Source of the DNA: an uncultured virus (IMG/VR IMGVR_UViG_3300049445_000078)
Taxonomy: Duplodnaviria; Heunggongvirae; Uroviricota; Caudoviricetes
Length of the DNA: 64,000 nt
IMG/VR virus record: IMGVR_UViG_3300049445_000078
Strand: one strand, 5' to 3'
Shown here one piece after another: positions 1,748 through 54,225 of this stretch (its first letter is position 1; every line of letters starts with the position of its first letter). Position numbers and translations under genes: made by a program. The notes beneath the pieces are model-generated. The model ran no database searches, was not told where the DNA came from, and saw only the letters and a list, made by a program, of their open reading frames with translations.

Positions 1748-1773
1748 TTTATTATATCTCGTTCATGATTTGT

Positions 1774-2283
1774 TCAGGAGCTACCAGCGACTGAGGCCAT
1801 GCTGCCTTTCGGCATGAGCAGGAAGAATTCTCCAACTTTAGGAAGCAGGCGTCGATAAAGACGGCACTTCGCCTCCGTCCTTTCGTTCGATATGATTCCT
1901 GTCATCAAGGGCAGCCCCGTAATCTCCACCTGAAGTTTCATCCATTCGATGAGAGCGTGGGCGTGATTCGACTTACGGCACTCCGGATCGACAAAAACTA
2001 TGAATTCCTCGACATGCTTATCTCTGGAATACCAGTAATCCCCGATGGTTACAAACACCAAACCCTCTAGGGCTCCAACCGGGCCAATAACTCCAATGGC
2101 TCCACGGGGACCAGTATCTCCAGGAGGAATGGTTTCAGGATTGAGAACCCGATTCATAAACCATTGGACCTTATCGGCAGCCAAGGTGAAGAGACCATTC
2201 TCCCGGTGCCCTTGGAGGAATAATCTCCACACTTCCTGTGCGTCAGCAGGCGTGGCAATACGAACAGAGGATGCACAGGTCAT
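1774..2283 (-). CDS. GNAT-fold protein in the virion module
   Basis: VRIATPADAQEV N-terminus, EEFIVFVDPECRKSNHAHALIEW acetyl-CoA-binding-like segment; position between tail and ejection genes. Confidence 0.65.
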   Translation of the reverse strand: MTCASSVRIATPADAQEVWRLFLQGHRENGLFTLAADKVQWFMNRVLNPETIPPGDTGPRGAIGVIGPVGALEGLVFVTIGDYWYSRDKHVEEFIVFVDPECRKSNHAHALIEWMKLQVEITGLPLMTGIISNERTEAKCRLYRRLLPKVGEFFLLMPKGSMASVAGSS

Positions 2284-2993
2284 GTCTTTGGCCCAGGGAG
2301 ACCCTTCAAGGTCTTGATGTGCTGCTTACGGGTGTGGAGAACGAATGCATCGAGAACCTTATGGCCCTTCTTGATATCACCAGCACCAAGCATCTTCACT
2401 ACATCAGGATGAATCACAAACTCTCCACCCGCAGCGACTATTGGAACGGTTCCGCTATCCTCCCCCGTATCCCCACCATCAGCAAACATTGGCTTAGGGA
2501 CACGTTGAGGGCTCATATTGAGATGAGGCATAGTAGGTCGTACACCACCAATATGAGGAAGCGGCATTCCACCGGGGCCCTTAGAAAACATTCGCTGAAG
2601 TATATTACCACCAGCAATACTATTCCCCTGTCCGAGTGCTGAAGGAATATCCGAAGGCAAGACATACGCACCAGCAGGAACGCTCATCGGCAGCTTGTCA
2701 GTCCTGCCCGGCACCGGAGACTTAATCATTCCCTCGAAGTGTAGATTTCTGGATGCTTGATGCTCCATCCATGAATCCATGCCGCCGCCTGAAGCATATT
2801 TCTTTGCTGTCCGCATGGCACCATCGAGTGCGCCGCCCTTACTTTTCTTGACATGATAGGGAAGCTTTTTGCCCTTCGAGGCGCTATTCCATTCTCCAAC
2901 ATCGACGCCTTGCGATTCCAGTTCCTTCTTGTGGATGTTGAAATATGCGGCCTGTGCACGCGATTTAAAGGGCATTTTGTTTCCTTTAGGCAC
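2280..2993 (-). CDS. Virion-associated protein with xxGG motifs
   Basis: MPFKSRAQAAY basic N-terminus, GRTDKLPMSVPAGAYVLPSD and GGEFVIHPDVV motifs; overlaps both neighbours. Confidence 0.6.
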   Translation of the reverse strand: MPKGNKMPFKSRAQAAYFNIHKKELESQGVDVGEWNSASKGKKLPYHVKKSKGGALDGAMRTAKKYASGGGMDSWMEHQASRNLHFEGMIKSPVPGRTDKLPMSVPAGAYVLPSDIPSALGQGNSIAGGNILQRMFSKGPGGMPLPHIGGVRPTMPHLNMSPQRVPKPMFADGGDTGEDSGTVPIVAAGGEFVIHPDVVKMLGAGDIKKGHKVLDAFVLHTRKQHIKTLKGLPGPKT

Positions 2994-3903
2994 TTCTTAG
3001 CATGGTTATGCCGCCAACAAAAACTGGGGGCATATTCTGGGCACCACCAGAGCCGTATGTTGCGATAGAGGTGGCGACAGTAATTCCGGTTGTCGCAAGA
3101 TCAGTGGTAGACTTTGCGATTGCCGCATTGGGGTTTGCAGCAAAACCAGAATTAGCGCCAGCAGAGTTTGAAATATTCAAAGTATGGAGATGCCCTGGAT
3201 CAGTAACAGAGCTATTCGCTGTATGACTGTGGGCCTGCGTGTTTTGATCTCCACCGCTGCCAAGCAGCGTGTTTCCAGGAACTCCAGATACGGCAGAACT
3301 TACCCTCCCTACGCCAGCATCCAAGGCAAGCCTGAGTCGCCCCCTTGCATCAGGAAGAGTCGTTCCACCAAGGATTGTTGCCAAAACAGGGTATGTGGCT
3401 GACGAAAAGGCGGTCCCGTCGCAGTTGAGGTATGGAGGAACGGTGCAGGCTGAGACCCAAGCCGGGACAGAGGAACCAGCATAATCCCAATAGTCACCAA
3501 CACCTCGCCCCAGATTCATATATTTTACGTTCGAGCCGTCAGTGAATATCTGGGTAGGAGTCCCCCACGGGCAGCCAATGGTTTGTCCACCGGCAGTTGT
3601 GAGGAATGTCACCTGAAAATTGGATGTGTTGCTGGTGAGGTTCTGGACCGTGTAGAAACTGCCAACGGCTGGGAATGTAACAGCAACACTACCGCTCAAG
3701 GCCCCGGTGAACACAAGAAAGGCGCACTGATACTGCGCTCCGCTTAGCGTTACGGGGGAGTTAGTAAGGGGGATCGTTGCAACGCCACCGAAGGAGTTGT
3801 CGATGATCCCCATGTTTCCATTAACGGGAACGTCCCAGGTGCCAACGTCCGAACCCCTGGTTGGTTGAGCTAAAAATTTGTTGACTGTTGTGGGGTCTGG
3901 AAT
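2986..3903 (-). CDS. Tail fibre protein with tail-collar-like domain; probable ATT start
   Basis: YLNCDGTAFSSATYPVLATILGGTTLPDARGR collar motif and QAHSH/PGHLH repeats. The frame is open 30 codons above the track ATG (3813) up to an ATT preceded by GGAGG. Confidence 0.75.
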   Translation of the reverse strand: MPDPTTVNKFLAQPTRGSDVGTWDVPVNGNMGIIDNSFGGVATIPLTNSPVTLSGAQYQCAFLVFTGALSGSVAVTFPAVGSFYTVQNLTSNTSNFQVTFLTTAGGQTIGCPWGTPTQIFTDGSNVKYMNLGRGVGDYWDYAGSSVPAWVSACTVPPYLNCDGTAFSSATYPVLATILGGTTLPDARGRLRLALDAGVGRVSSAVSGVPGNTLLGSGGDQNTQAHSHTANSSVTDPGHLHTLNISNSAGANSGFAANPNAAIAKSTTDLATTGITVATSIATYGSGGAQNMPPVFVGGITMLRSA

Positions 3904-24292: not shown

Positions 24293-26767
24293 TCATTCCT
24301 TTGCCTTCGGTTTCTTTACCTTAGCCAATTGTTTAGCGGACTCCAACTTCTGTTCGTGTAACTCCTGTGCGTGCTGCATGGACATCCGATGAGACTCGTC
24401 GGCACGGCGCATTTCAGCCTGATGCCGTTCATGCTCCATCTGTAGTTCCATGGCAGTTTTAACAACACCACCACGCATTTCATGCTGCTGTTCGATCTGA
24501 TCGCCTTGGAGTTCGCTCATTCTGGCAATGTGATCGTGCTGCAATTCCTGTATCTTTTGGGCGCGATCCATCTGCATCTGCTGTTGCGATTCGACGGTGC
24601 TCTGCTGGAGATCGTGGGCGTGGATAACCGCTTCCTGCTTCAGCCTCATATCCGCCAACTGAAGCTTCATAGCCTCAATACGCTCTCTCGACTGGCGCTC
24701 CTGTGCCTTATCAGCAAATGTTGCCTGAGCGGTCGCAGCCTTGATCTGCGCCTCCATCTGCTGGATTTGAGCCTGTTGCTGAGCCTGCTGTTGCTTGGCC
24801 TGAATAGCTTGGAATCTCGGATCGGGTGGAGGTTCTGCTGGAGTCGGTCTGAATAGACCTTCGGGGTCAATATCGACAATCCGCATGATCCGCATATCGA
24901 CGGCTTGAGGATCGTAAAGCTGCGGGCTCGCCTGTTGTAGCGTCTTGATCGCCATCGCCTTGGCAATGCGGTGCAGGGAAGTCGGGTTGTTCGGGTCAGC
25001 AACAGGAACCAGTTCGCAGCTATTCAACGCCTGAATAAACTGGTCTTTCTTCCACTCGATAGTCTGTTTCTTATCATGCCGCCAGAAGGCTTCCGGGTCC
25101 TCGCGGAACCGTTCTTTGAGAAGTTTGAATTCTTCGGCCTGCGCTGCATGAAGCCGCTTGTGAGCAGAGTCCATGACTTTGGAGGCTTGCTCGATAAGCG
25201 CGAGAGTAGTTCCAACCGGAGCGTCTTGCTTACCTTCCCCAACATTGGCACTAGCTGTAGAGGCGAGACGCCTTCCCACTTCCTCGATGTGCGTCGTAAA
25301 AGCCGTGAAGGAGGGTCCAACTTCCTTATAAGGAAGCGGCATAATTGCGTCTTTGATTGACTGCTGTGCGCCAACATCTAGTCCCTGTCCCGTGCCAGGA
25401 GCAATGCGGAAGGTATTGGTGTTCTGCCGACCAGCGCCTTTGGCATATAAAAATCCGGGGAAGTTAGCAAACATCCCACTGTCCAGCATAAGCCGCCAAG
25501 CAGCAGTAAGGGCGCTAGTGGTGTTACCGAGTAGATGAATATAGCCAAGTCCATAGAATCCAAGACCACGGATAAAGGGAAACTGGACGAAGAATCTCTT
25601 GGCGAGACATTGCTCATCCTCTTCCTTCCAGTTCCTGCGGATATCGAGGATTTTACGGCTGTCGTGCTCGATTGTTACACGATACGGGAGCGGTAGCCCT
25701 TTTCCCTTGAATTGCTTTGGCGCGAATTCATCAAGATCGAGTTCGCAGTAGCACTCGTAGATTGTGTATTCTCTATCTTCCGGACGCTTGATAGTGTCCT
25801 TTTGTCCGGAAAGTTCCTGCTTCTTCTTATCAACCGCGTCGGGGGCCGGAGGATTGGGAACACCAATGTCTACATCCCGATAAACACCTAGAATCTGCAT
25901 TCTTCTGAGAGTTGACTTCCGCATCTTAATGCGGTGGGTAACTCTCGTGGAATTGTAAAGGTCGGTCGCCGCATTGGAAACAATCAGGTCTTCGGCATCA
26001 ATACTTTCCGAGACAGGTCTTCGGCGTAAGGGGCAGTTATAAACCTTTTTGAAGCCATCACCTCCAAAGCCAACGTAGAACAGCATCCGGTCAGTATCAG
26101 GAACATACTCAGTCGCGACAGCCGTCAGATAATGGTTCATATCCTTCTCAAGAGCCTGAGAAAGATCATCCTTATTATCCATGCTGTCGGCTAGATCGTG
26201 AGTTGCTGACGTGTCTTGCGAGACAGACTTTGGAGGGGTCGGTGCGTCATTGCGGACTTTAACAGGTCCTGATGCTGGGAGGAGTTCAGCGCGGGCAGTG
26301 GCTTGAAATGATACTGTGGCCTCCAATAACAGTGGGTGCCTGACAACAGCCATGCCCTCAAGCGGCGCACTCGATGTACCTGCGTCTGATCTGGCTTTTT
26401 CAAGTTTCAACCCCAGTAAGGCAATTCCCTGTTCGCGAGTATCAATCCACTCTTTCCGGGAAAGTATGTCCTGCTCGATTCCTTCCTCAAGACTTGTCGC
26501 AATCGAGGAAAGCTCGCCGTCATCCATGTTCTTGGCGAGATTCTTGTCGAAATCGGTATCTTCCGGTCCATCATCGGTCTGCGGCTCGCCACTGAAATCA
26601 ATAGTGGTCGTCCCGTCCTCGTTATCAATCTTGATGGCACCGTCTTCAAAGGAAACATTAGAGGTAGGAGCAGATTCACCATTTGTTCCCCCAACAATAG
26701 ACAACGCACGATGCGTTGGCTTGGGATAGGGATCGGTGAGTGGCAAACTGCCTGTTTTTCGCGCCAT
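24293..26767 (-). CDS. Portal protein
   Basis: HPLLLEATVSFQATARAELLPASGPVK, GFKKVY, GFYGLGYIHLLG, APVGTTLALIEQ and a Gln-rich C-terminal coil; follows TerL. Confidence 0.9.
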   Translation of the reverse strand: MARKTGSLPLTDPYPKPTHRALSIVGGTNGESAPTSNVSFEDGAIKIDNEDGTTTIDFSGEPQTDDGPEDTDFDKNLAKNMDDGELSSIATSLEEGIEQDILSRKEWIDTREQGIALLGLKLEKARSDAGTSSAPLEGMAVVRHPLLLEATVSFQATARAELLPASGPVKVRNDAPTPPKSVSQDTSATHDLADSMDNKDDLSQALEKDMNHYLTAVATEYVPDTDRMLFYVGFGGDGFKKVYNCPLRRRPVSESIDAEDLIVSNAATDLYNSTRVTHRIKMRKSTLRRMQILGVYRDVDIGVPNPPAPDAVDKKKQELSGQKDTIKRPEDREYTIYECYCELDLDEFAPKQFKGKGLPLPYRVTIEHDSRKILDIRRNWKEEDEQCLAKRFFVQFPFIRGLGFYGLGYIHLLGNTTSALTAAWRLMLDSGMFANFPGFLYAKGAGRQNTNTFRIAPGTGQGLDVGAQQSIKDAIMPLPYKEVGPSFTAFTTHIEEVGRRLASTASANVGEGKQDAPVGTTLALIEQASKVMDSAHKRLHAAQAEEFKLLKERFREDPEAFWRHDKKQTIEWKKDQFIQALNSCELVPVADPNNPTSLHRIAKAMAIKTLQQASPQLYDPQAVDMRIMRIVDIDPEGLFRPTPAEPPPDPRFQAIQAKQQQAQQQAQIQQMEAQIKAATAQATFADKAQERQSRERIEAMKLQLADMRLKQEAVIHAHDLQQSTVESQQQMQMDRAQKIQELQHDHIARMSELQGDQIEQQHEMRGGVVKTAMELQMEHERHQAEMRRADESHRMSMQHAQELHEQKLESAKQLAKVKKPKAKE

Positions 26768-26771
26768 TTAT

Positions 26772-29219
26772 TTACGTTGGATATAACGGCAAATTGGCCG
26801 ATGGAGAAACATAACGCATATCGTCTTCCCGAGCCAGAGAACTCTCGTCTCGCCTGAGCGCAAAGCCTTGATCGCGAAGATACCTTAGTCCCATGCTGAC
26901 TGCATCACAGTTATGGACTAGCACACCATTGGCATAATAGCACTTAGCTTCCTCCACGCTTAGATTGAATACTGGCCGCAAATCGTGGATGAATATATCG
27001 GCTTTTACCGCGTTTGAACTCACTTGATTGCTCACAACATCTCGTAGAGCAGAACTTTCTAGTTGATAATTTATATTCAAATCTATCCCCGCACCAAATA
27101 CATTCTTTTGTTCCTTTAACTCTAAATACCCAAGTTCTACTAGGCTTTTGGATACTTTGCTTGGCGTGCTGACGATGCCATTCGATCCCCTCTGGGGAAG
27201 AATGCCAAGCCTTTGTAAGTGGTCTAATACGTTCCAAATGAGCAAGCTGTCGCTCTGTATCAATCTTTTTAGGCATACTGCGATGCACGCGCTTCGGTAG
27301 GCACTCCAGATTTTCAAAGCGGCAATCGAAGGTATCACCGTTCTTGTGATGAATTTCGTGACCCTCTGGGATATCCAACCCTGAAAAGTGCTCCCAAATC
27401 GCGACATGAAGCCCTTTGGCTTTCTTTCTGTCAGCATTTCTTGTTGCTTGAGAGAGATAGTATTTTCTCTTTCCACCCATTCTTCGATAGGTTTGTCCAT
27501 TGAAATCAACGATTTCTGGCGGATTGTCCGGATCAAGTCGCATAGATTGAACCTCACTAATTGTTCCAGTGAGATACTATCCATTCTCATGAAGCCAGAA
27601 TCAAGAGAAAAAACGGGGTGGTTTCCCGTCCCGGTCAATGGGCCAACATTGATAACCTGACGCCAGCCAGTGAACCCATGACCTGTGACTCGTCGCCAGC
27701 CCAGTGGGGTTATCACCTCATCATCATCCAAAATCTGCTCAATAGGAATCGAGCCGCGCCGAGTAGAGATTTGGGTTCCAGCGACGAGACAAAGATCGTC
27801 ATGTGATCCTTTCGGAAAGACCGAGACCTGATCGATCACCATATCGGCCCATGCCTTGTCGGGAGCATAGACCATCTCATCCGCGAAGATGTGCTGGATG
27901 CTGTGAACCCTTGAGACCTTATCGCCATACTTCTTCGGGTCTATGGCATCTATCCCAAACTTCCCGGAAGCCCCGATAAGACGGTAAATCTCCTGCGCCA
28001 CAGACAGACCACTAGCCTTTCCCTCAATGAGAAGCCGGTCTATCGGGAAGCTGGGATAGTCCTTCGGAGCCATCGAAATTGTACAGGTTCCAATAACCCT
28101 TTGAACTAACTCATTAAATTGGAGCCTTTCTTGCCACGCATGGACGAGCATGATCTTGGGGTTGTTATTGGCATCTCGAAAGACCCCTAATATGACTAAG
28201 GCACTGGGATCATTCTCTTTTTTCTCGGTATAGGCGGTATCCAAAGACCCTAGAATGTACTCGAAATTGGGGTATTTATCGTCTTCCCACAGTTGCCAGA
28301 AGTGTCGCTTGATAATAGACCCACCTCTAGGCTCCGGCGACTGCTGGTACTGACCAGCCCAAGCGTATTCGCCCTTATCCCTTTGTAAGTCCTGAACAAT
28401 TTGCTCTGGAAACCGCTCTGGCCATGCCAATTCCCCATCATCAATACGGGGGTCTTCCCACAGGACCGTCGAGCAGTGGCGGGCGGTATCATGGTACATT
28501 GGTATCATAAGGTGTGTGTAACCCATCTCCCGACTCAGGGCGATACCGCTCACGTCATCCTCATGGGTCCTCTGCTGGATGACTACGATGGAACTTTCGG
28601 CCTGATTATTCAGTCGGTCGGGCATGACTTCCGTAAACCACATATTCGTGGTGGCCCGGACGGCCTCCGATTCCATCTCCATGGGGTTATTCGGATCGTC
28701 TATTATTACGATATCGGCTCGCTCGCCTGTACCTATACCCCCTACCGAGGTAGCGAGCTTCCATCCAGTCTGGTCATTGGCAAACTTGATCTTGGTAAAC
28801 TGCTCGTTGGAAATCCCGAATCTCTTGCCCCACAAAGCCTTGTAGCGGTCGCTGATAACGATGTTGCGGCATCGCATATTATCTCGTTCTGTCAAATGGT
28901 TAGAGTATGCGGCACACATGAACCGGGTCCATGGTCTGTTACATGGCCCCCAAATCCAGGCAGGCCAGAACACATCGGTCAGGAGCGATTTTGAGAAGCC
29001 GGGGGGCACGTTTATCAACAATCTTCGTATGTGCCCATCTGTAACAGCTTCAAGGTGGTCGCAGATGGCTTCCATGGCCCATCCCCGGACCATAGGGATA
29101 GCCGGTTCCACTACCGGCCAAACGTACTCGGCAAAGTCGATCAGGCTCTCCTCGTATATCTCCCGCTCCTTAAGGCGCTTGATGCCAGCAATGGCGTTCT
29201 TGAGGATGATGCCGTTCAT
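26772..29219 (-). CDS. terL: Terminase large subunit containing a 294-aa intein
   Basis: LLINVPPGFSKS Walker A, IIDDP Walker B, SLDTAY and IEGKASG nuclease motifs; the HDDL|CDA motif is split by the intein. Likely start ATG 29219. Confidence 0.95.
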   Translation of the reverse strand: MNGIILKNAIAGIKRLKEREIYEESLIDFAEYVWPVVEPAIPMVRGWAMEAICDHLEAVTDGHIRRLLINVPPGFSKSLLTDVFWPAWIWGPCNRPWTRFMCAAYSNHLTERDNMRCRNIVISDRYKALWGKRFGISNEQFTKIKFANDQTGWKLATSVGGIGTGERADIVIIDDPNNPMEMESEAVRATTNMWFTEVMPDRLNNQAESSIVVIQQRTHEDDVSGIALSREMGYTHLMIPMYHDTARHCSTVLWEDPRIDDGELAWPERFPEQIVQDLQRDKGEYAWAGQYQQSPEPRGGSIIKRHFWQLWEDDKYPNFEYILGSLDTAYTEKKENDPSALVILGVFRDANNNPKIMLVHAWQERLQFNELVQRVIGTCTISMAPKDYPSFPIDRLLIEGKASGLSVAQEIYRLIGASGKFGIDAIDPKKYGDKVSRVHSIQHIFADEMVYAPDKAWADMVIDQVSVFPKGSHDDLCLVAGTQISTRRGSIPIEQILDDDEVITPLGWRRVTGHGFTGWRQVINVGPLTGTGNHPVFSLDSGFMRMDSISLEQLVRFNLCDLIRTIRQKSLISMDKPIEEWVERENTISLKQQEMLTERKPKGFMSRFGSTFQGWISQRVTKFITRTVIPSIAALKIWSAYRSACIAVCLKRLIQSDSLLIWNVLDHLQRLGILPQRGSNGIVSTPSKVSKSLVELGYLELKEQKNVFGAGIDLNINYQLESSALRDVVSNQVSSNAVKADIFIHDLRPVFNLSVEEAKCYYANGVLVHNCDAVSMGLRYLRDQGFALRRDESSLAREDDMRYVSPSANLPLYPT
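26910..27791 (-). mobile_element. Intein (Hint domain) in the TerL nuclease motif
   Basis: Block A CLVAGTQISTRRG, block B LTGTGNHPVF, block F VFNLSVE, block G YYANGVLVHN followed by Cys+1; 882 nt in frame. Confidence 0.93.
26944..27543 (-). CDS. HNH endonuclease nested in an alternative frame inside the intein
   Basis: LHVAIWE...EIHHKNGDTFDCRFENLECL HNH motif; CIWC...FCSTRC Zn finger; GAGGT 7 nt before its ATG. Confidence 0.88.
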   Translation of the reverse strand: MRLDPDNPPEIVDFNGQTYRRMGGKRKYYLSQATRNADRKKAKGLHVAIWEHFSGLDIPEGHEIHHKNGDTFDCRFENLECLPKRVHRSMPKKIDTERQLAHLERIRPLTKAWHSSPEGIEWHRQHAKQSIQKPSRTWVFRVKGTKECIWCGDRFEYKLSTRKFCSTRCCEQSSEFKRGKSRYIHPRFAASIQSKRGGS

Positions 29220-29297
29220 AAAAATATTTATCCCCGACCGTGCAAAACTAAAGAATAATGGTTGTGGTCGTTTTAAGCAACATCCTATCACATAGGA

Positions 29298-29606
29298 ATG
29301 CACTTCGGAATTCTCGAACCCCACGAATACGTCATCAAGCGGCTGCATGAACTGCAACCTGCCGAGAAGTACATCTACTTCACCGGCTTCCTTGAGGAAA
29401 TGAGACTGAAGGACAGAAACGTAAACGCCATTGCTTCAACCGCCTATCACCTCATGGAACGCGGTCTCATCATCCTTACCCAGAAACGAATCAGCCTGCC
29501 AATCTCATATACCGGAACCGTCAGTTGGGTTTTTGGTATGGGGAAAGGATTTTCCTACATAGCTATCGGGAAGTTGCCGAAAAAGAAATCAGCCAATTGG
29601 ATGTAG
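29298..29606 (+). CDS. Hypothetical protein, first ORF of the divergent operon
   Basis: 102 aa ORF heading a tightly packed plus-strand run. Confidence 0.55.
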   Translation: MHFGILEPHEYVIKRLHELQPAEKYIYFTGFLEEMRLKDRNVNAIASTAYHLMERGLIILTQKRISLPISYTGTVSWVFGMGKGFSYIAIGKLPKKKSANWM

Positions 29607-29618
29607 AGGAGCAACTGC

Positions 29619-29816
29619 ATGGCTTTTATTTACCAATGTGAACGATGCCTTTCCTACTTAAAAGATATTGGTCACATAAAGCGTATCGAAATTGATTTGA
29701 TCTCGGGCGAAGGGGGCGAAGGAAGTGCTCATCTGGAAGAGGAAGGAATGTTTTGTCTCACCTGTGCGCCTGACGTTTTAGCAGAGCTAAAGGGCATTAT
29801 GAGACGCGAGAAATAG
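29619..29816 (+). CDS. Small Zn-finger protein
   Basis: CERC...CLTC; GAGGAG RBS. Confidence 0.6.
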   Translation: MAFIYQCERCLSYLKDIGHIKRIEIDLISGEGGEGSAHLEEEGMFCLTCAPDVLAELKGIMRREK

Positions 29817-29825
29817 GAGAATATC

Positions 29826-29993
29826 TTGACCAGAGATGATTTTGAAGAACTCGAAAAACAAGTCATGAAGGAAGTGGTGAGGCGACGAAGCTTGGGAGGC
29901 TACTCTGTAGAAGCAGAAGGAGTTCTGTTTCTATCTGAGTGTATGCTTAAGATAGTCCGACATCTCCACGAACAAATACCACGAAAAAAATGA
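29826..29993 (+). CDS. Small hypothetical protein (55 aa, TTG start; not in track)
   Basis: AGGAG RBS; its stop overlaps the next start as ATGA. Confidence 0.55.
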   Translation: MTRDDFEELEKQVMKEVVRRRSLGGYSVEAEGVLFLSECMLKIVRHLHEQIPRKK

Positions 29994-30484
29994 TCGTCAC
30001 CAGACGGCTGACACTGGTGCCACCTTCGGATGAGTCAATTCCGAAGATGGTGGAGTGGTTGAATGATCCTGATGTGACGAGATACTCCGAACAGCGACAT
30101 CAAAAACATACGGTTCCCTTCCAGCGAATCTACATCGGCATGATGACTCGCCCCCATAAGTACCTAGAAATCCGCACCAACGACACCATCATCGGGACAA
30201 TTACCGCCCATGTGGACCCCTATAACGATGTGGCTGATGTAGGAATCATGATTGGAGAGAAATCGTTGTGGGGAAAGGGCTATGGCGCAGAGGCATGGCA
30301 AGCCTTCTGCGATTACCTACTCGGCAATGGAATTCGTAAGGTGGAGTGCGGATGTATGAATATCAATTTCGGTATGAAACATATCTGTCGAAAGACAGGG
30401 ATGAATTACGAAGGGCGCAGGTTTGCCCACTTCCTTGTAGGGGAAGATACCGTGGACATGCTTTATTTCGGACGTTTCCGATGA
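29990..30484 (+). CDS. GNAT N-acetyltransferase (RimL/PseH-like)
   Basis: EWLNDPDVTRYSEQR and VGIMIGEKSLWGKGYGAEAW motifs; sugar-pathway context. Confidence 0.8.
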   Translation: MIVTRRLTLVPPSDESIPKMVEWLNDPDVTRYSEQRHQKHTVPFQRIYIGMMTRPHKYLEIRTNDTIIGTITAHVDPYNDVADVGIMIGEKSLWGKGYGAEAWQAFCDYLLGNGIRKVECGCMNINFGMKHICRKTGMNYEGRRFAHFLVGEDTVDMLYFGRFR

Positions 30485-30696
30485 AAAGCCCATTGAGAAT
30501 AACATTTCCAAAGTTTCTTTGGATAGAAATACACATTCCTAAATGGCAATGGAAAATTGAACGGGAGATAAACCATTTTACCGGCCACCGATGGTCCGTT
30601 TGCTTAGGGTGGGTATGGATATCTTGGTACAATTTCAAAGAGAACAAAGATTACTATAACAGAATTGAAGAGAGTCGCAAAAGAGGGTGGTGTTAA
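30481..30696 (+). CDS. Small Trp-rich hypothetical protein
   Basis: ATGA overlap with the GNAT stop; begins MKSPLRITFPK. Confidence 0.5.
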   Translation: MKSPLRITFPKFLWIEIHIPKWQWKIEREINHFTGHRWSVCLGWVWISWYNFKENKDYYNRIEESRKRGWC

Positions 30697-30697
30697 A

Positions 30698-31285
30698 GTG
30701 AAACAGGCTGATGTTTTCTACCACTCTGAAGGTGCTTGCTGGCTTGCAAGAAACGAAGAAAAACTAACCGGCATTGATGATCCGGTAATGGCTGCCATCA
30801 AGGATGCCAAGATCAAACCGAATTCAGTTCTGGAAATTGGCTGCTCCAATGGCTGGCGCTTAAAGCTGCTGGAGAAGAAATACAAGTGCGCGACTACTGG
30901 CGTTGAACCTGCCGCAATCGGGACAGGAAACATCCTGCGCGGAACTGCGGATAACCTACCAATCAAACACCTCACATTTGATGTCGTGATCTATGGATGG
31001 TGCCTCTATCTCTGTGACAGGGAGGACTTGTTCAAGATTGCAGCGGAAGGAGACCGTGTTCTTCAGGAGGATGGCTATCTCATCGTCTACGATTTCTTTT
31101 CCAACAAGCCATATCAACGAGCATACAAACACCATCCGGGAATCTTCAGCTACAAGATGGACCATTCCCTGATTTGGCTGGCAAATCCTGCCTATAGGCT
31201 CATGCAAAGAACCATGATCGATGATGAAACGGCTATAACAATCCTACATAAGGATACAGCGCACGGATGGCCGCTCAATGACTAA
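30698..31285 (+). CDS. Class I SAM-dependent methyltransferase
   Basis: VLEIGCSNG, TGVEP and FDVVIYGWCLY motifs; likely GTG start at 30698. Confidence 0.85.
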   Translation: MKQADVFYHSEGACWLARNEEKLTGIDDPVMAAIKDAKIKPNSVLEIGCSNGWRLKLLEKKYKCATTGVEPAAIGTGNILRGTADNLPIKHLTFDVVIYGWCLYLCDREDLFKIAAEGDRVLQEDGYLIVYDFFSNKPYQRAYKHHPGIFSYKMDHSLIWLANPAYRLMQRTMIDDETAITILHKDTAHGWPLND

Positions 31286-32168
31286 GACCATTGGTGTCAT
31301 CGGCCTTGGGTCCATCGGGACTAGGCACAAAACCAATCTCTGGAAAGAGTTGGGGCAGACCGAGGTTATTGGTTATGACCCGGACCCGACCAAGCAAAAC
31401 GGGACGGGATGGGTCATCGGTGACTTGGATAAGATGATTGAGATGTCCGACATTCTAATCATCGCCAGTCCAACTCCTAATCACTATGAGCATCTGGTCA
31501 AGGCGTGCATGACCAACAAGCCTATCTTCATTGAGAAGCCAATAGCCGATACCCCTGCTGTCCACCATCTCACCCACCTTATAGCAACCCGCCCCTTCAT
31601 GGTGGGCTACAATCTTCGATTCCATTCCTGTGTAAAGAAGGCGAAGGAATGGATGAATGAGATTGGCAAACCACTCTGGGCCAACATCACCCTTGGACAA
31701 CATAGCGAGAAACCACCCTATGTTCGAGACGGCGTTATTCTCAACTGGAGCCATGAAATTGATCTTGCCCTGTATCTCCTTGGGCCTGGGCACGTTCTTA
31801 CTTCTTCTACTCGCGTTAGTAACGGAAAGGATGATGTCAGTGACATCTTACTCCAGCACAATTCTGGATGCAGATCGCTGGTTCACCTCGACTACGTTAC
31901 ACGACCAGAAATCCGGCAAACATTAATCGTCGGCTCCAAAGCAACAATCATCATTGATTTGGTTAATCGCATGGCGTGGTTACGAGGTTCTGACGATGTA
32001 ATACTAGATCAGTTCCAAGGTCTGGACACTTGGCAGATGAATTATGTGGAAGAGATGCAGGAATTTCTCGGTCTGTGCGACGGTGAGAAATCTATAGGTT
32101 GTACTGGGAAAGAAGCATTAGCAGTTCTCGATATTTGTCTCGAAGTAAGAAAGCAGGCTGGATTATGA
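31278..32168 (+). CDS. Gfo/Idh/MocA NAD-dependent oxidoreductase
   Basis: GVIGLGSIG, IFIEKP, VGYNLRFH and SHEIDL motifs. Confidence 0.9.
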   Translation: MTKTIGVIGLGSIGTRHKTNLWKELGQTEVIGYDPDPTKQNGTGWVIGDLDKMIEMSDILIIASPTPNHYEHLVKACMTNKPIFIEKPIADTPAVHHLTHLIATRPFMVGYNLRFHSCVKKAKEWMNEIGKPLWANITLGQHSEKPPYVRDGVILNWSHEIDLALYLLGPGHVLTSSTRVSNGKDDVSDILLQHNSGCRSLVHLDYVTRPEIRQTLIVGSKATIIIDLVNRMAWLRGSDDVILDQFQGLDTWQMNYVEEMQEFLGLCDGEKSIGCTGKEALAVLDICLEVRKQAGL

Positions 32169-34177
32169 AGGTTTTAGCAATTTGTCAGGCTAGAATGGGT
32201 TCCACCCGCGTACCAGGAAAGGTTATGCGGAGACTTGGTAACAAACCTGTATTGAGGTGGACTCTCGATGCGGTAGAAAAGGCTGAATTAGTTGATGATT
32301 TTGTTCTGGCAACGTCAACCGATACCGCTGATGATGTCATAGAACAATACTGCGATGAAAATAATCTAGAATGCTTCCGAGGAAGTGAGACGGATGTTCT
32401 TGATCGATATTATCAGTGTGCGAAGAAGCATCATGCCGACATCGTATTACGGTTTACCTGCGATTGCCCTTTCCTTGATCCTGGAGTTATCAACGAAGTC
32501 ATCAAACTTAGGGACATGACGAATGCGGATTACGCCTCAAATTGCTATCCGCCTACTTATCCTGACGGTCTTGATACTGAGTGCTTTACCTTTGCTGCCT
32601 TGGAGGCAGCTTGGAATGAAGCAAAAAGTCAGGTCGATAGGGATTGCTGCACGCAATTCATTGTTCGCAACCGTGACCGTTTCAAGGTGGTTAACCTAAC
32701 CTGCCCCCTCCCTGGTTTAGATAAGGAACGATGGGTTCTTGATACCGAAGATGACTGGAGGCTATGCCAAGGCATAGTATCCCATCTTACCAAGTTTTCC
32801 TATCCAGAAATTCTATCGTGCCTAGACGAAAATCCAAAGATTAGGGAACTCAACGCTGGGGGCATACGCAATGAGCGATTCTATGAAGCATTGGCGGAAG
32901 AGAGACTATCCCCACGAACATTTGAGCGGTCTACCAGAGTATTCCAAAGAGCAATACAGACCATACCGGGAGGGGCACAAACCTACAGCAAGAGCCACAT
33001 CCAGTTTCCGACCGGGGCTGCGCCACTATGTGTTTCTTACGGTGATGGTGCTTACATCTTTGATCTCGATGGTAATAGGTATCTTGATCTTATTAACGGT
33101 ATTTGTCCTGTCATTCTTGGGTATGGCGATCCGGACGTTAATGAAGCCATTCGCAGGCAACTCGACAACGGCATCAGCTTCTCGCTCGCAACCAAGATCG
33201 AAACCGAACTCTCCGAACTCCTCTGTCACCACATCCCCTGCGCCGAAATGGTCAAGCTGGGAAAGTCCGGAACAGATGTAACAACGGCAGCAGTGAGGTT
33301 AGCGCGTGCTTATACTGGTCGCGATCATGTCCTCTTATCTGGATATCACGGTTGGAGTGATTGGTCTATCGCTTGCACTGATCGCAATCATGGTGTTCCA
33401 GAGGACGTAAGGCATCTTACACACCGCATTCCTTATGGTGATGACCCGAATGTAAATAGGCCACCGTTTCCGTGGGCTCATACAGTCGCGGCAATTATAG
33501 TAGAACCAAACGATAACCCAGAATATCTCAAAGGTTTACGAGAACATTGTACCAAGCATGGTATCGTTCTCATCTTTGACGAAATCATCACCGGATTCCG
33601 CTACGACCTTGGCGGCGCACAGAAGCTGTACGGTGTAACACCCGATCTCGCCTGCTTCGGCAAGGCCATGGCGAACGGAATGCCTATTTCTGCCCTCGTC
33701 GGTAAGCGTAACATCATGAAGATGATGGAATCGCCGGATGTATTCTACTCCGGCACCTTTTTCGGTGAGACACTTTCCATTGCAGCAGCTATTGCAACAA
33801 TCAAGAAACTGGAGCGCGAGAAGGTCATTCCCTACCTGTACGAGATGGGGACTAAGGTCATCAATCTCATTGGTGAACTGATCGATTCCGAGGAGATAAA
33901 CGACTTTGTTTCCATCAGCGGCAACCCAACCAAATCGACCATCTCATTCAAAGGAGAACATGCCGGAAAACTGAGAACCCTCTTTATCCGAGAAATGATC
34001 CAGCAAGGCGTTCTGATTATGGCGACCAATACGATGTCGTATGCACACAAGAAACCAGAAATACAGCGCATCTTCAAGGCATACGATCATACCTTATCTG
34101 TATTAAAGGAGTCATTAATGGATGGCTCCATTGAGAAGATAGAGCCCACACAAGCTGCACCGTTGAGGGCAGCATGA
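32165..34177 (+). CDS. SpsF/PseF-type cytidylyltransferase fused to a class III PLP aminotransferase
   Basis: QARMGSTRVPGKV and RFTCDCPFLDP (CMP-sugar synthetase); LIFDEIITGFR and FGKAMANGMP (class III aminotransferase). Start ATG 32165. Confidence 0.9.
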   Translation: MKVLAICQARMGSTRVPGKVMRRLGNKPVLRWTLDAVEKAELVDDFVLATSTDTADDVIEQYCDENNLECFRGSETDVLDRYYQCAKKHHADIVLRFTCDCPFLDPGVINEVIKLRDMTNADYASNCYPPTYPDGLDTECFTFAALEAAWNEAKSQVDRDCCTQFIVRNRDRFKVVNLTCPLPGLDKERWVLDTEDDWRLCQGIVSHLTKFSYPEILSCLDENPKIRELNAGGIRNERFYEALAEERLSPRTFERSTRVFQRAIQTIPGGAQTYSKSHIQFPTGAAPLCVSYGDGAYIFDLDGNRYLDLINGICPVILGYGDPDVNEAIRRQLDNGISFSLATKIETELSELLCHHIPCAEMVKLGKSGTDVTTAAVRLARAYTGRDHVLLSGYHGWSDWSIACTDRNHGVPEDVRHLTHRIPYGDDPNVNRPPFPWAHTVAAIIVEPNDNPEYLKGLREHCTKHGIVLIFDEIITGFRYDLGGAQKLYGVTPDLACFGKAMANGMPISALVGKRNIMKMMESPDVFYSGTFFGETLSIAAAIATIKKLEREKVIPYLYEMGTKVINLIGELIDSEEINDFVSISGNPTKSTISFKGEHAGKLRTLFIREMIQQGVLIMATNTMSYAHKKPEIQRIFKAYDHTLSVLKESLMDGSIEKIEPTQAAPLRAA

Positions 34178-35118
34178 AGAACGTCCTAATTACAGGAGGC
34201 ACCGGGAGCTTTGGCAATGCCTTTGTTCGCAGACTTCTGGCGTCACATAAACCGGAACGTATCGTCATCTATTCAAGAGATGAACAGAAACAGGAAGAGA
34301 TGGCTCGTAGCCTTGCTCATCTTGATCGCAATTCTGTTCTTCGATTTTTCATTGGGGATGTACGGGACCGTGATCGCCTTGAGTTTGGGCTTCATGGCAT
34401 CGATACTGTTATTCATGCTGCTGCCCTAAAGATTGTTCCAGTTTTAGAATACAATCCGACTGAGTGCATCGCCACTAACATCGGAGGAGCGGAAAATGTC
34501 GTCAGAGCCAGCATTAGAGCGGGCGTTAAAAGAGTCATTGCACTATCGACGGATAAGGCAGTCAATCCTATCAATCTATACGGTGCATCGAAGCTTGCAG
34601 CAGAAAAGGTCTTTATCGCAGCGAATTCTCTCGCAGCCGGAAGTACTCTCTTTAGCGTTGTCAGGTATGGCAACGTTGCTGGCTCTCGGGGTAGCGTTAT
34701 TCCTTATTTCCGGAAACTTGCCTTAGAGGGAAAGCCGCTCACCGTAACTCACCCTGATATGACCCGGTTCCACATCACTCTAGATCAGGCCATCGATTTA
34801 GTACTGACTTGTCACAATAATATGAAAGGCAGGGAAATCTATATTCCAAAAATTCCATCCTTTAGGATACTCGATCTGGTAAGTGCCTTCGATAAAATTG
34901 GCGTAGAGATTGGCATCAGACCCGGAGAGAAGATTAACGAGTGTTTGATGACCGAGGATGAGTCCCGCCATGCCTTCGATCTTTCCACCTTCTACATGAT
35001 CCGAGAAACCAAGGAGCGGCTTGGACTCAGGGTAAAAGAAGGTTTCAGATATGCGAGCGACACAAACTCAGAGTGGCTTAGTGTGCAACAGTTGAAGGAG
35101 ATTATCAATGCACCATAA
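34174..35118 (+). CDS. pseB: UDP-N-acetylglucosamine 4,6-dehydratase (inverting)
   Basis: ITGGTGSFG, SRDEQKQ, HAAALK, LSTDKAVNPINLYGASK, RYGNVAGSRGSV and GIRPGEK motifs. Confidence 0.9.
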   Translation: MKNVLITGGTGSFGNAFVRRLLASHKPERIVIYSRDEQKQEEMARSLAHLDRNSVLRFFIGDVRDRDRLEFGLHGIDTVIHAAALKIVPVLEYNPTECIATNIGGAENVVRASIRAGVKRVIALSTDKAVNPINLYGASKLAAEKVFIAANSLAAGSTLFSVVRYGNVAGSRGSVIPYFRKLALEGKPLTVTHPDMTRFHITLDQAIDLVLTCHNNMKGREIYIPKIPSFRILDLVSAFDKIGVEIGIRPGEKINECLMTEDESRHAFDLSTFYMIRETKERLGLRVKEGFRYASDTNSEWLSVQQLKEIINAP

Positions 35119-35425
35119 ACTCCCGGATTGGTGGATATTCGTTTTTCTTAATCCACTAACTGCGCTTGCGGCCACTGGTTTATTTGTCTGGTATCTTCAA
35201 GGAGTGGATGAGCGTTGGGATGCAGAAGAAAGAGCAGCCCTATTGACAAAGAAACAGACAATCGAAAATTCGCTACAGGGCTGCAAAATATTCAACTACG
35301 GTGACTATGGCAATGTAAGAGATTTGGTCATCGTCAAATGCGACGGAAAATCATCTGTTACAGAAAACCACATGAAGACCGTTGGGAAAATAAAGTATCA
35401 AACTACTACAGCAACCATTGAGTGA
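35108..35425 (+). CDS. Small membrane-anchored protein
   Basis: N-terminal hydrophobic helix; packed inside the sugar operon. Confidence 0.6.
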   Translation: MHHKLPDWWIFVFLNPLTALAATGLFVWYLQGVDERWDAEERAALLTKKQTIENSLQGCKIFNYGDYGNVRDLVIVKCDGKSSVTENHMKTVGKIKYQTTTATIE

Positions 35426-35434
35426 GGAAAAACA

Positions 35435-35620
35435 ATGCCTAGACTTTCCAATGAAAAGATCATCCGTCGCGTCAAGTCGATTCGGACTCGCAATAATTCC
35501 TGCTGGATGAAATTATTAGCACTGGCGGTAAAGACCAATCCAAGGAAGGCTAAGAAAATCCTCAACCAGATTTCAGCATACGACTCACAGATAGTAAAAT
35601 GGATGAAACACCTACACTAG
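35435..35620 (+). CDS. Small basic protein
   Basis: GAGG RBS; overlaps the next gene. Confidence 0.6.
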   Translation: MPRLSNEKIIRRVKSIRTRNNSCWMKLLALAVKTNPRKAKKILNQISAYDSQIVKWMKHLH

Positions 35621-36699
35621 GCCCGTTACCGCCGTTCTTTACGATAGGGCGGTCTGAGGCTACCAATGTATCTATTGCGATGCGGCATAGTTTATCTGGA
35701 TACCTCGGTGGCATTCCCCATGGTGGTTACTGGGTAGAACGGTTAGCATCCGAGTGGTGTGAGGCGTTTGGAGTCAAGCACTCGATACCGTGCAACTCGG
35801 CAACCAGCGGACTTTTGGCATCATGTCTAGCGATTGGAATTGGCCCAGGAGACTTAGTTTGGTGTCCAGGAAGCAGTATGTCTGCTACGGCTGCCTGTGC
35901 GAAGGTGTTAGGAGCACATATTGCGTTCATAGACATAGAGACGATTCGTTTCTCGATCAACATGAACAACTTCGGGAGTATCCGCCCGAAGGCTATTATT
36001 GTGACGAACTTATTTGGACATCCAGCCTATCTAAAGACCATGCGTTCCTGGTGCGACTCCAATAGAGTGTGGATGATTGAGGATAATGCGCAATCTCCTT
36101 TTGCCAAAGAAGGCGACCAGTATGCAGGAACCATCGGACACATCGGGGTCTTCAGCCTTAACGTTCATAAGCACATCCAAACAGGCGAAGGAGGCGTTAT
36201 TGTCACGAACGATGACGCTTTGGGGGATCGACTACGGGGCGCGATCAATCATGGAGAGTTGGGAAATTCTGGTCAGGCAGGGCTCAATCTCAGAATCACC
36301 GAGCCGATTGCGAGCATTGCTAGTGCTCAGTTAGACAAGGCCCCCGCTATTATGCGTGGACGCATTGCTCTGGCCCTCGAAGTCATCGATATGTTCGATC
36401 TCCCGTGGCTTATTGTACCACAACGTCCAGACTTGGGCTGCACCCATTCCTATTACATTGCCGCATTCAGAGTTATGGATGGCAAGAGACAGCAAATCCT
36501 CGATAGGCTGTGGAAGAGAAGTTTCCCGATGCGTAAGGGATACTCACCTACCTTGAATCGAGTCTTTGGCGGCAAGTCATGTCCTGTAGCCGAGAGACTT
36601 GAGGATGAGGAGTTAATGACGTTCGAGGTGTGCGCTTATGATCCATCCTCTTGGCATCTTAGACAGATGCGAGAGATAGCAAAGTGGGCTGTCGAATGA
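35599..36699 (+). CDS. DegT/DnrJ/EryC1/StrS aminotransferase (PseC-like)
   Basis: CNSATSGL, IEDNAQS and FSLNVHKHIQTGEGG motifs. Confidence 0.88.
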   Translation: MDETPTLGPLPPFFTIGRSEATNVSIAMRHSLSGYLGGIPHGGYWVERLASEWCEAFGVKHSIPCNSATSGLLASCLAIGIGPGDLVWCPGSSMSATAACAKVLGAHIAFIDIETIRFSINMNNFGSIRPKAIIVTNLFGHPAYLKTMRSWCDSNRVWMIEDNAQSPFAKEGDQYAGTIGHIGVFSLNVHKHIQTGEGGVIVTNDDALGDRLRGAINHGELGNSGQAGLNLRITEPIASIASAQLDKAPAIMRGRIALALEVIDMFDLPWLIVPQRPDLGCTHSYYIAAFRVMDGKRQQILDRLWKRSFPMRKGYSPTLNRVFGGKSCPVAERLEDEELMTFEVCAYDPSSWHLRQMREIAKWAVE

Positions 36700-37709
36700 C
36701 CTACTTTATCGCGGATATAGCGAGTAACCATGATGGCTCTCTCGATAGAGCCAAGGAACTTATCAAACTGTGTGCGGAATCCGGAGCGCATTGTGCCAAG
36801 TTCCAGCACTTCAAGGCGGAATCCATTGTCAGTGCCGAGGGCTTCAAGTCTCTCAAGATCGCTCATCAGGCCAAGTGGGAGAAGCCGGTCTTTGAAACCT
36901 ATCAGGATTATAGCCTGAATAGAGAGTGGAATTCGGTATTGGCAGAGACGGCTAATGGATGTGGCATCGACTTCATGACCACACCCTATGACTTTGAGGC
37001 GGTCGATCAGGTCTATGATCTGGTTCCTGGATACAAGATAGGCTCAGGGGACATCACCTATCTTCAGTTAATCGAATACATCGCCAAGAAGGGAAAGCCA
37101 GTCTATCTCGCTACTGGAGCCTCAACAATGGAAGAGGTAGAGCGAGCGGTTGAAGCTGTGCTTAAACATAACCCGCATCTATGCCTCTTGCAATGTAATA
37201 CCAACTATACGGGGGATGAGGAGAACTTCAAATATGTCAATCTTAACGTTCTGCATTCATATAGATTACATTGGCCTTCAGTCATTCTCGGCCTTAGCGA
37301 TCATACCCATGGGTCATCTACTGCGCTTGGTGCTGTTGCACTGGGGGCCAAAGTCATTGAAAAACATTTTACTGACGACGCAACAAGAATAGGTCCGGAT
37401 CACGCCTTTGCTATGGAACCACCAGAATGGAAGTCGATGGTTAAGGCGGTAAGAGAGTTAGAACTTGCAATGGGTGACGGGGTGAAGAGAGTTGAAGCCA
37501 ATGAGGCCGAATCTGTCATCGTGCAGAGACGGGCTCTCAGGCTTAAGACCGATCACGGGAAGGAGCAAATTCATGCGGAGGATATTGAGGCACTTCGCCC
37601 ATGCCCGGATGGAGCGTTAAACCCCTCTCAGCTTGACGATGTTGTTGGTCGAACTCTAACGCATGGCCTTCCGGCAGGACGAGAAATCTATCCAGAGAAT
37701 CTTTCTTAG
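36696..37709 (+). CDS. N-acetylneuraminate/pseudaminate synthase (NeuB/PseI family) with SAF domain
   Basis: IADIASNHDG, KFQ, YKIGSGD, GLSDHT, IEKHFT and GPDHAFAMEP motifs; start ATG 36696. Confidence 0.92.
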   Translation: MTYFIADIASNHDGSLDRAKELIKLCAESGAHCAKFQHFKAESIVSAEGFKSLKIAHQAKWEKPVFETYQDYSLNREWNSVLAETANGCGIDFMTTPYDFEAVDQVYDLVPGYKIGSGDITYLQLIEYIAKKGKPVYLATGASTMEEVERAVEAVLKHNPHLCLLQCNTNYTGDEENFKYVNLNVLHSYRLHWPSVILGLSDHTHGSSTALGAVALGAKVIEKHFTDDATRIGPDHAFAMEPPEWKSMVKAVRELELAMGDGVKRVEANEAESVIVQRRALRLKTDHGKEQIHAEDIEALRPCPDGALNPSQLDDVVGRTLTHGLPAGREIYPENLS

Positions 37710-53697: not shown

Positions 53698-54225
53698 TCA
53701 CCATTCATGTCCGCATTTGGGGCAGTGCTTGATAGGCTTCTTGCGGAAACCAGCTTCGATAGCTGCTGCATTAGCGGATAGTTTTTTGGCAATTACTTTT
53801 TCAAACAAATCTGGGCGCTCCCGCTTAAGCCGGGAAACCGTGTAGGATAGGGAATTGCCGCGACCATCATGGATAGTGACATTGTCACCATCCTCTATCG
53901 TATGTTGATTGGTTCCCACTGGTCTCTTTATTGCATCACGCCATAAAGCGACTGTCTGTGGATCATCCTTAATAAGAGCCTCAACTTTATTAATTGGCCA
54001 GCCACATCCTTTGAGCGGAGGAGTGACAATAAAATCAGAGAAGTTTGTAAATTCTATTGGTTCCTTTCCCAACTGAGGAACCTCTCGTTTTTTCCAAGCT
54101 TCTGTCTCAAGCAGTCTCCTAACCAAAGGAGCCACATTCTCAAGACTGCCAGCAGATGTATTTACAGCACTCCAAAGAGCCTGCACCAGATGATGATTCT
54201 CAATAAGATTGTTAATCACAGCCAA
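53698..54225 (-). CDS. Hypothetical DNA-binding protein coupled to the helicase gene
   Basis: RLKRERPDL...LSANAAAIEAG and C-terminal CPKC. Confidence 0.6.
   Translation of the reverse strand: MAVINNLIENHHLVQALWSAVNTSAGSLENVAPLVRRLLETEAWKKREVPQLGKEPIEFTNFSDFIVTPPLKGCGWPINKVEALIKDDPQTVALWRDAIKRPVGTNQHTIEDGDNVTIHDGRGNSLSYTVSRLKRERPDLFEKVIAKKLSANAAAIEAGFRKKPIKHCPKCGHEW

Follow-up and report, generated by a model that had tools for sequence, protein, structure and literature searches.

Introduction

Canonical inteins carry their nuclease in frame with the splicing domain. A departure from this design is described in PMC4422536 (Virol J 2015), where the intein in the large terminase subunit gene (terL) of brucellaphages is stated to contain an out-of-frame HNH gene, and the record of Brucella phage Tb (JN939331) annotates TerL with the remark 'intein present' and places ORF8 within it. 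Gosselin et al. (2025, bioRxiv 10.1101/2025.01.02.630785) describe as a class those actinophage inteins that carry an 'endonuclease VII-like' nuclease in frame 3; the authors call theirs the first report and propose that an intein was invaded by a free-standing nuclease. The present analysis concerns a 64,000-nucleotide stretch of DNA from an uncultured soil virus of the class Caudoviricetes (IMG/VR record IMGVR_UViG_3300049445_000078), referred to as a whole as the window, in which terL is interrupted by an intein whose DNA also encodes, on the same strand and in another frame, an HNH protein of 199 amino acids.

Two further arrangements lie close to this one. An out-of-frame HNH gene located in a methylase gene, with no intein, is reported in PMC11855218, and Dassa et al. 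(2009; PMC2677866) describe fractured genes in which a free-standing nuclease lies between the two parts of a split intein. The window feature is a real member of an already published design. The novelty implied by an earlier interpretation of the window made from its letters alone (the sequence-only reading) was therefore overstated, since an out-of-frame HNH gene in a terL intein had already been published (PMC4422536; bioRxiv 10.1101/2025.01.02.630785). What is new here is a large, multi-phylum family of HNH_3 nucleases nested at an offset of +2, together with quantitative evidence on which of the two frames is selected. The locus is very probably a composite selfish element, consisting of a class 1 intein in the acidic HDD motif of TerL and a separate I-HmuI-like HNH_3 gene in the +2 frame.

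Results

The insert and its two reading frames

The TerL open reading frame (ORF) matches the terminase large subunit family phrog_38 of PHROGs over residues 61-522 (E 9.6e-78), and, judging from the point at which the PHROG matches set in, the ATG at 29219 is a likelier start than the first TTG. The intein within this frame (Table 1) opens with CLVAGTQIST..., its Cys1 codon TGT occupying 27791-27789, and closes with ...GVLVHN, the last base of VHN being 26910; the +1 Cys codon follows at 26909-26907 and is succeeded by CDAVSMGLRYLRD. Sequence features of a class 1 intein are present, namely Cys1, a block B TxxH motif (TGNH) and a C-terminal Asn with Cys at +1 (VHN/C, the slash marking the junction here and below). 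C1, H58 and N294 do not vary among the 52 aligned relatives, and T55 is kept in at least 90%. When the intein is read in the TerL frame, Pfam returns only weak matches, to Hint_2 and Intein_splicing, and finds no nuclease family. Pfam also gives no match on the window exteins or on an empty relative (L090). In relatives L114 and L102 the region equivalent to the N-extein is Pfam Terminase_6C, an RNaseH-like domain, and the placement of the window insert in the nuclease domain therefore rests on these two relatives. The host gene runs through the insert as a single frame of 861 codons rather than as the two ORFs of a fractured gene with a split intein, and one precursor that splices in cis is therefore expected.

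The nested frame begins at an ATG (27543-27541) that lies 1814 nucleotides past the TerL start, which corresponds to an offset of +2 on the same strand, and ends at a TAA (26946-26944) located 34 nucleotides short of the intein end. Its product matches Pfam HNH_3 (PF13392) with E 6.7e-15 and 54.9 bits against a cut-off of 24.8, and the same family is matched by 52 of 52 relatives. An I-HmuI-like His-Me finger is followed by a C-terminal CxxC...C...C zinc ribbon. Columns H46, H66, N78, H87, W113, H114, C148, C151 and C169 are invariant in all 52, and the catalytic His...Asn...His (H66, N78 and H87) is kept in the window. A second zinc ribbon that is present in many relatives is missing from the window protein, and this short C-terminus is common to its whole clade (window, L009, L010 and L011). 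The coordinates given by the sequence-only reading for the intein, the HNH gene, the motifs, GAGGT, TAG and TAA were correct to the base.

Table 1. Coordinates of the interrupted terL gene, its intein and the nested HNH_3 gene in the window
Feature	Position	Strand	Remarks
TerL precursor ORF (large terminase subunit)	26772-29357	minus	861 amino acids from first TTG; one continuous frame
N-extein	27792-29357	minus	ends ...FPKGSHDDL, acidic motif of the nuclease domain
Class 1 intein	26910-27791	minus	294 residues; Cys1...TGNH...VFNLSV...VHN
N-terminal splicing half	27516-27791	minus	intein residues 1 to ~92; TerL frame only, last codons excepted
TerL-frame 'shadow' linker	26991-27515	minus	intein residues ~93-267
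C-terminal splicing half	26910-26990	minus	blocks F and G; contains the HNH stop TAA
C-extein	26772-26909	minus	starts with the +1 Cys, CDAVSMGLRYLRD...
Nested HNH_3 endonuclease gene	26944-27543	minus	199 amino acids; +2 frame; assigned by Pfam
Shine-Dalgarno-like GAGGT	27551-27555	minus	7 nucleotides before the HNH ATG
TAG closing the HNH frame	27577-27579	minus	12 codons before the HNH ATG

Assembly and chance

Contigs of four public runs (X1, X3, X5 and X6) match the intein region with 0 differences and 0 gaps. X5 covers 26903-28226 and X6 covers 26772-28024; X1 and X3 are a possible source of the window, whereas X5 and X6 are not flagged as such. Synonymous shuffling of the HNH codons leaves the window TerL frame free of stops in 1.2% of 2000 shuffles, and the third frame contains 18 stops. 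The overlapping ORFs are more than chance.

Selection on the two frames

Differences between close nested copies were counted by codon position. In the overlap they amount to 0.0044, 0.0005 and 0.043 per site at HNH positions 1, 2 and 3 (19 pairs of 95-99.99% nucleotide identity, which are not independent of one another), compared with 0.0088, 0.0092 and 0.050 at TerL positions 1, 2 and 3 in the 130 codons upstream, which comprise the extein end and the N-terminal splicing half (21 pairs); upstream of the overlap the excess thus moves to TerL position 3, and the selected frame switches. HNH position 3 is TerL position 2, and every change there alters a residue in the TerL frame. Because substitutions concentrate on HNH third positions, which are TerL second positions, the HNH frame is, on this substitution pattern, under purifying selection.

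For the overlap, 1476 distant pairs give a TerL-frame identity of 0.203, against 0.2008 for the synonymous-shuffle null (standard deviation 0.001), and identity in the closed third frame is 0.210. No extra selection on the TerL-frame linker was found in this comparison, and its conservation, lying at the null level, is therefore a by-product of that of the nuclease. The TerL frame of nested copies contains 0 stops where a mean of 1.9 is expected, and the third frame contains a mean of 15.7; in the window linker 2.7 stops would be expected and there are none. In the TerL-equivalent frame, each of the 8 free-standing relatives contains between 1 and 12 stops. These counts support the view that the TerL-frame middle is a shadow of the nuclease gene and is kept only stop-free.

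Start signals of the nested gene

Of 60 representatives, 58 have a start codon where the HNH domain begins. A strict Shine-Dalgarno 5-mer lies upstream of 30 of the 58 chosen starts and of 7.8% of 5958 control triplets, a 6.6-fold enrichment; 14 of the 60 representatives lack even a loose motif. The HNH stop mostly falls 31-55 nucleotides before the intein end in the same 60. The enrichment and the placement of start codons support a start of the nuclease's own.

No internal promoter signal was found in 26500-29700, where one sigma-70-like site occurs against 4.1 expected, and terminator-like sites in this interval number 4 against 2.8 expected. A terminator-like hairpin with a T-run lies in the N-terminal splicing half (27610-27632, minus strand), about 65 nucleotides before the HNH ATG, and in a second hairpin (27551-27575, minus strand) CUCACU pairs with AGUGAG across GAGGT; neither stands out from shuffles. 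A regulatory hairpin over the ribosome site of the window HNH gene was considered and rejected, its fold being ordinary (z -1.09, with 28 of 200 shuffles equal), and a hairpin at this site is no family trait either (mean pairing 0.571 against 0.555 in controls, p 0.47). The separate control of nuclease expression that the sequence-only reading expected of the design finds no support in an internal promoter or a general ribosome-site hairpin.

Distribution of the nested layout

A tblastn search with the 199-amino-acid protein returned matches inside annotated terL genes of phages from Clostridium, Tetrasphaera, Acinetobacter and Rhodobacteraceae hosts, 4 of 4 at +2 to the TerL coding sequence. 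A profile scan of IMG/VR gave 497 confirmed relatives, the best 80 of which were used and combined with 8 loci from named phage records into a set of 88. The HNH domain lies wholly within a long frame in 80 of these 88 phage or viral loci (75 of the 80 from IMG/VR), in every case at +2, and the enclosing frames are mostly 700-1190 codons long. Among bacterial and archaeal genome-bin loci, 23 of 33 are nested, 22 of them at +2 and one (L142) at +1; the record titles name Cyanobacteria, Proteobacteria, Firmicutes, Bacteroidota, Acidobacteria, Verrucomicrobia, Actinobacteria and candidate phyla.

Intein hallmarks are present in every enclosing frame. For 58 of the 60 representatives both intein ends could be set, at Cys1 and at [HSKLQ]N/[CS]; in two of the 58 (L028 and L054) the pattern mis-set the C-terminal boundary, the proper ends being visible in their frames. 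The insertion sites share one TerL motif with small shifts: HDDx/CD[AST], HDDxVDx/C[TS]QAL and NDH(A)/C(L)DALRY. Judged by these matches, HNH_3 nucleases nested at +2 in the TerL nuclease motif form a large family with members in many phyla. A blastn search of the window terL against the phage collection gave no match. The record nearest to the window (G001) has no more of the gene in common with it than the final 112 nucleotides.

Two members depart from the common layout. L142, a contig from a metagenome-assembled genome of Candidatus Peribacteria, holds the sole nested copy at +1 (542-3073 and 2124-2852); its intein (EHDH/C...KN/S) and its HNH gene both appear intact, and the offset is therefore not absolutely fixed. 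Clostridium phage phiCD119 (L005, AY855346) carries the phiCDHM19 element with the TerL frame and the HNH head broken at about 1743-1920 and the pieces annotated as separate genes. This breakage reflects either decay or old sequencing errors.

Empty sites and alternative states

The HDD site is uninterrupted in 31 of the 31 nearest TerL relatives in IMG/VR (27-75% identity), and this patchy distribution fits homing. Some relatives have a native Cys at a neighbouring site, as in HDDLVDSCTQ of L114. L114-L117 and L102, all of them empty at the HDD site, have other inserts elsewhere in TerL: in L114 Pfam identifies an intein of the canonical type, with LAGLIDADG in frame, at about residues 322-579, and L102 has a 160-residue insert near TerL residue 103.

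On a quick tree the 7 free-standing nucleases are interspersed with 60 nested ones, a pattern that requires at least 4 changes of state, or at least 3 when only well-supported branches are counted. Free-standing relatives adjoin terminase genes, lying just upstream of TerS in BP10 and just downstream of TerL in SN1 and FBPa53; in L047, L050 and L051 the free-standing nuclease follows an intein-less TerL.

A split version of the element is found on an IMG/VR contig (L085, about 1287-3688). The N-terminal part of TerL and the N-terminal splicing half stop at 2885, the HNH gene occupies 2872-3516, and the C-terminal splicing half with the C-extein lies in another frame at 3242-3688. By its sequence this locus resembles either the split-intein layout of a fractured gene or a decayed copy. 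On a further IMG/VR contig (L080, 141-815), the stop-free frame of a free-standing HNH gene opens with ...PLDATRYAVL, which resembles a TerL C-extein, directly before the Met; this may be the end of TerL running into the HNH frame, the contig being cut at that point. The tree calls for at least 3-4 changes between nested and free-standing, and nested, free-standing and split states appear to interconvert. The sequence-only reading had derived the element from a free-standing HNH gene that invaded a mini-intein, a direction that the tree does not settle.

Predicted folds

An AlphaFold model of the intein was built with the 52 relatives as alignment. Its pLDDT score (predicted local distance difference test) is 88-98 at residues 1-90 and 95-97 at residues 270-294. 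Between these parts the score is 39-59, with the exception of a single long helix at residues 135-194 (about 27210-27389), where the means of 10-residue blocks reach 72-82 over residues 141-180; conservation of this helix is no higher than the by-product level. A Foldseek search with the model retrieved the gp41-1 intein (E 2.7e-4) and the Ssp DnaB mini-intein (E 5e-4), with root-mean-square deviations of 2.5-3.2 A, and also the DnaX mini-intein, all with probability 1.00. The two intein ends are thus predicted to form a HINT fold. The model of the nested nuclease has a pLDDT of 89.4, and its best structural match is I-HmuI.

Other genes of the window

Sugar-modification genes lie opposite the packaging genes at 29990-37709 (plus strand) and comprise acetyltransferases, a cytidylyltransferase-aminotransferase fusion, an epimerase and a second aminotransferase. 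Such cargo is unusual in a phage, and it may modify a nonulosonic-acid-type sugar or the cell surface. A helicase of 639 amino acids (ResIII and Helicase_C) is encoded at 54216-56135 (minus strand), and its first 100 residues weakly match the endonuclease VII PHROG phrog_1035 (E 3.1e-7).

Discussion

Proposed mechanism

In a composite element of this kind, ribosomes on the TerL frame can traverse the ~175 shadow codons, and the linker would be translated with TerL and afterwards spliced out. Protein splicing would remove the intein together with its meaningless linker and restore TerL. The nuclease would be translated independently from the terL mRNA and would nick or cut intein-less terL alleles of co-infecting relatives. 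Repair would then copy intein and nuclease jointly and co-convert the flanking codons, giving the +1 Cys. The intein would make the insertion harmless and the nuclease would provide mobility; the nested HNH nuclease is probably what spreads the insert.

Most of what the sequence-only reading said about the architecture is upheld. It had claimed that the TerL-frame middle contains no recognisable LAGLIDADG or HNH motif, where Pfam indeed finds no nuclease family and the model no confident fold, and that the same DNA encodes a 199-amino-acid HNH and zinc-finger protein out of frame, now assigned to HNH_3 with its zinc ribbon. Its interpretation of the insert as a dual-coding element agrees with the recurrence of the +2 nesting and with the stop-free TerL frame, and that of the shadow frame as a linker agrees with the null-level conservation. 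Two of the checks that it proposed, for purifying selection on an HNH frame that stays open with the TerL frame in homologues and for indel errors, came out in its favour, the former through the contrast between HNH positions 2 and 3 and the latter through run contigs that are gap-free over the intein.

Several points weigh against the composite element or narrow what can be drawn from the data. The Pfam scores of the intein lie under the gathering thresholds (Hint_2 18.7 against 28.4, Intein_splicing 20 against 35.8), because a non-homologous middle of ~175 residues splits the match. Splicing of the window allele would give HDDLCDAVSMG, and the closest empty alleles have HDDLVDCVSMG at this place; these contain no +1 Cys, and homing into them therefore needs co-conversion of the next few codons. 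Identities of the splicing domain and of the HNH protein co-vary, with a Spearman coefficient of 0.29 that is reached by 0 of 2000 permutations, but this co-divergence is only moderate. Many of the close pairs used for the substitution counts come from one cluster (L014-L020 and L043), and the tree of states is a quick one. Finally, splicing, translation from ATG 27543 and cleavage are all predictions from the sequence.

Alternative explanations

Four other explanations were weighed. The idea that two compensating indels mask an ordinary in-frame HNH intein stems only from the in-frame nuclease of canonical inteins, and nothing was found for it. The indel-free match of contigs from four runs, two of them not flagged as a possible source, the +2 offset shared by all 80 nested loci, which come from independent assemblies and from cultured phages, and an HNH frame that has a start of its own, preceded 12 codons earlier by a stop, make its probability negligible, and assembly error is already refuted. 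A ribosomal slip out of the TerL frame and into that of the HNH gene would yield a fusion of the N-terminal intein part with the HNH protein and would need no independent initiation. Both frames do lie on a single mRNA, and the 14 representatives with no Shine-Dalgarno motif would be accommodated, but in nearly all loci a stop closes the HNH frame a few codons before the domain, and the start codons in 58 of 60 representatives, with the 6.6-fold enrichment of Shine-Dalgarno motifs, render frameshifting very improbable; nor was a slippery site noticed, though no search was aimed at one. The locus could also be a silent relic, that is, a fixed mini-intein with a junk linker in which the HNH ORF is now unexpressed. 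The element is known here from DNA alone, and the window copy is missing the second zinc ribbon of many relatives; the short C-terminus, however, is clade-wide, the catalytic and zinc-binding columns of the window are all intact, and stops would soon accumulate in a dead ORF of 199 codons. Together with the purifying pattern in close pairs (0.0005 at position 2 against 0.043 at position 3), this makes a relic quite improbable.

The remaining alternative holds that the nested HNH is no homing enzyme and instead a terminase-associated protein that has become embedded in terL. HNH proteins encoded beside terminase genes are said, in work ascribed to Kala and colleagues in 2014, to assist DNA cutting, and free-standing relatives of the window protein do lie directly beside terminase genes (BP10, SN1, FBPa53, L047, L050 and L051). 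An adjoining target gene is equally expected, however, of a free-standing homing endonuclease aimed at terL. Packaging HNH proteins of the HK97 gp74 type are small PF01844 proteins that the terminase requires for DNA cutting; the window protein is HNH_3 with no PF01844 match, and only 1 of 52 relatives matches that family, weakly. Among solved structures, the homing nickase I-HmuI is the only relative that the sequence profile finds. The insert is missing in all 31 nearest TerL relatives, and the TerL lineage of the window therefore does not need it. A packaging role is accordingly unlikely, and the composite selfish element remains the preferred explanation.

Implications

A selfish element of this design would divide two jobs between two reading frames of one DNA, with ~175 codons translated merely to be discarded. 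Only TerL is annotated over the nuclease gene in the cultured phages phiCDHM19, TJE1, Highwayman and LS06-2018-MD07; nested nucleases are missed by gene callers, and surveys that look for in-frame nucleases in inteins would class such inteins as 'mini' or 'unknown'. The family offers many natural replicates for studying the evolution of overlapping genes and linkers that tolerate arbitrary sequence. It is possible, though doubtful, that the HNH_3/+2 element is one old lineage, apart from the brucellaphage and actinophage endonuclease VII cases, which has held both frames open during its spread among the phages of many bacterial phyla and has repeatedly released its nuclease as a free-standing gene next to terminase genes or turned into a split layout like that of L085. 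If so, inteins would be nurseries of free-standing homing nucleases, the reverse of the invasion story.

Comparison with known systems

The HNH homing nickase I-HmuI of Bacillus phage SPO1 is encoded in a group I intron and falls in Pfam HNH_3. Its structure (PDB 1u3e) is the sole solved one matched by the family profile (E 4.8e-4); identity to the window protein is ~15-16%, and the zinc ribbon of the window protein stands in the place of different DNA-binding modules in I-HmuI. The methylase element of PMC11855218 is like the window in having a zinc-finger HNH in the third frame of the host gene, an open host frame and a patchy occurrence among close relatives. It has no splicing domain, and its insert therefore stays in the host protein, whereas the window nuclease gene is enclosed by a complete intein. 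In the fractured genes of PMC2677866 the nuclease gene is separate and lies between the splicing halves, as in L085, whereas the window TerL frame is continuous.

Brucella phages Tb and Pr (Perisivirus; JN939331) share with the window a terL intein within which a whole HNH gene is encoded out of frame on the same strand. The Tb gene is offset by +1, since (3170-2347) mod 3 = 1, and that of the window by +2. The Tb intein interrupts TerL in its ATPase half (about residues 181-506), the window intein in the nuclease motif. The Tb nuclease belongs to PF01844 and has its HNH at the end, after the zinc ribbons, whereas the window has HNH_3 followed by a C-terminal zinc ribbon. When ORF8 of Tb was compared with the profile of the window family, the zinc-ribbon part alone aligned (68 columns, probability 93%). 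The window element is thus not a member of the Tb intein and ORF8 family, from which a homologous nuclease at an identical site and offset would be expected.

The actinophage inteins (bioRxiv 10.1101/2025.01.02.630785) have the same design and relative frame as the window, many of them in terL, and their in-frame middle likewise gave no recognisable predicted structure. That survey covers only the actinophages of PhagesDB, and 'Tetrasphaera' occurs 0 times in its text. The actinophage nuclease is assigned there to IPR004211, and the window family matches HNH_3 in 52 of 52 cases and the endonuclease VII family PF02945 in 0 of 52 at E <= 0.01. Family assignment thus distinguishes the HNH_3 nucleases nested in the TerL nuclease motif from the brucellaphage as well as the actinophage cases.

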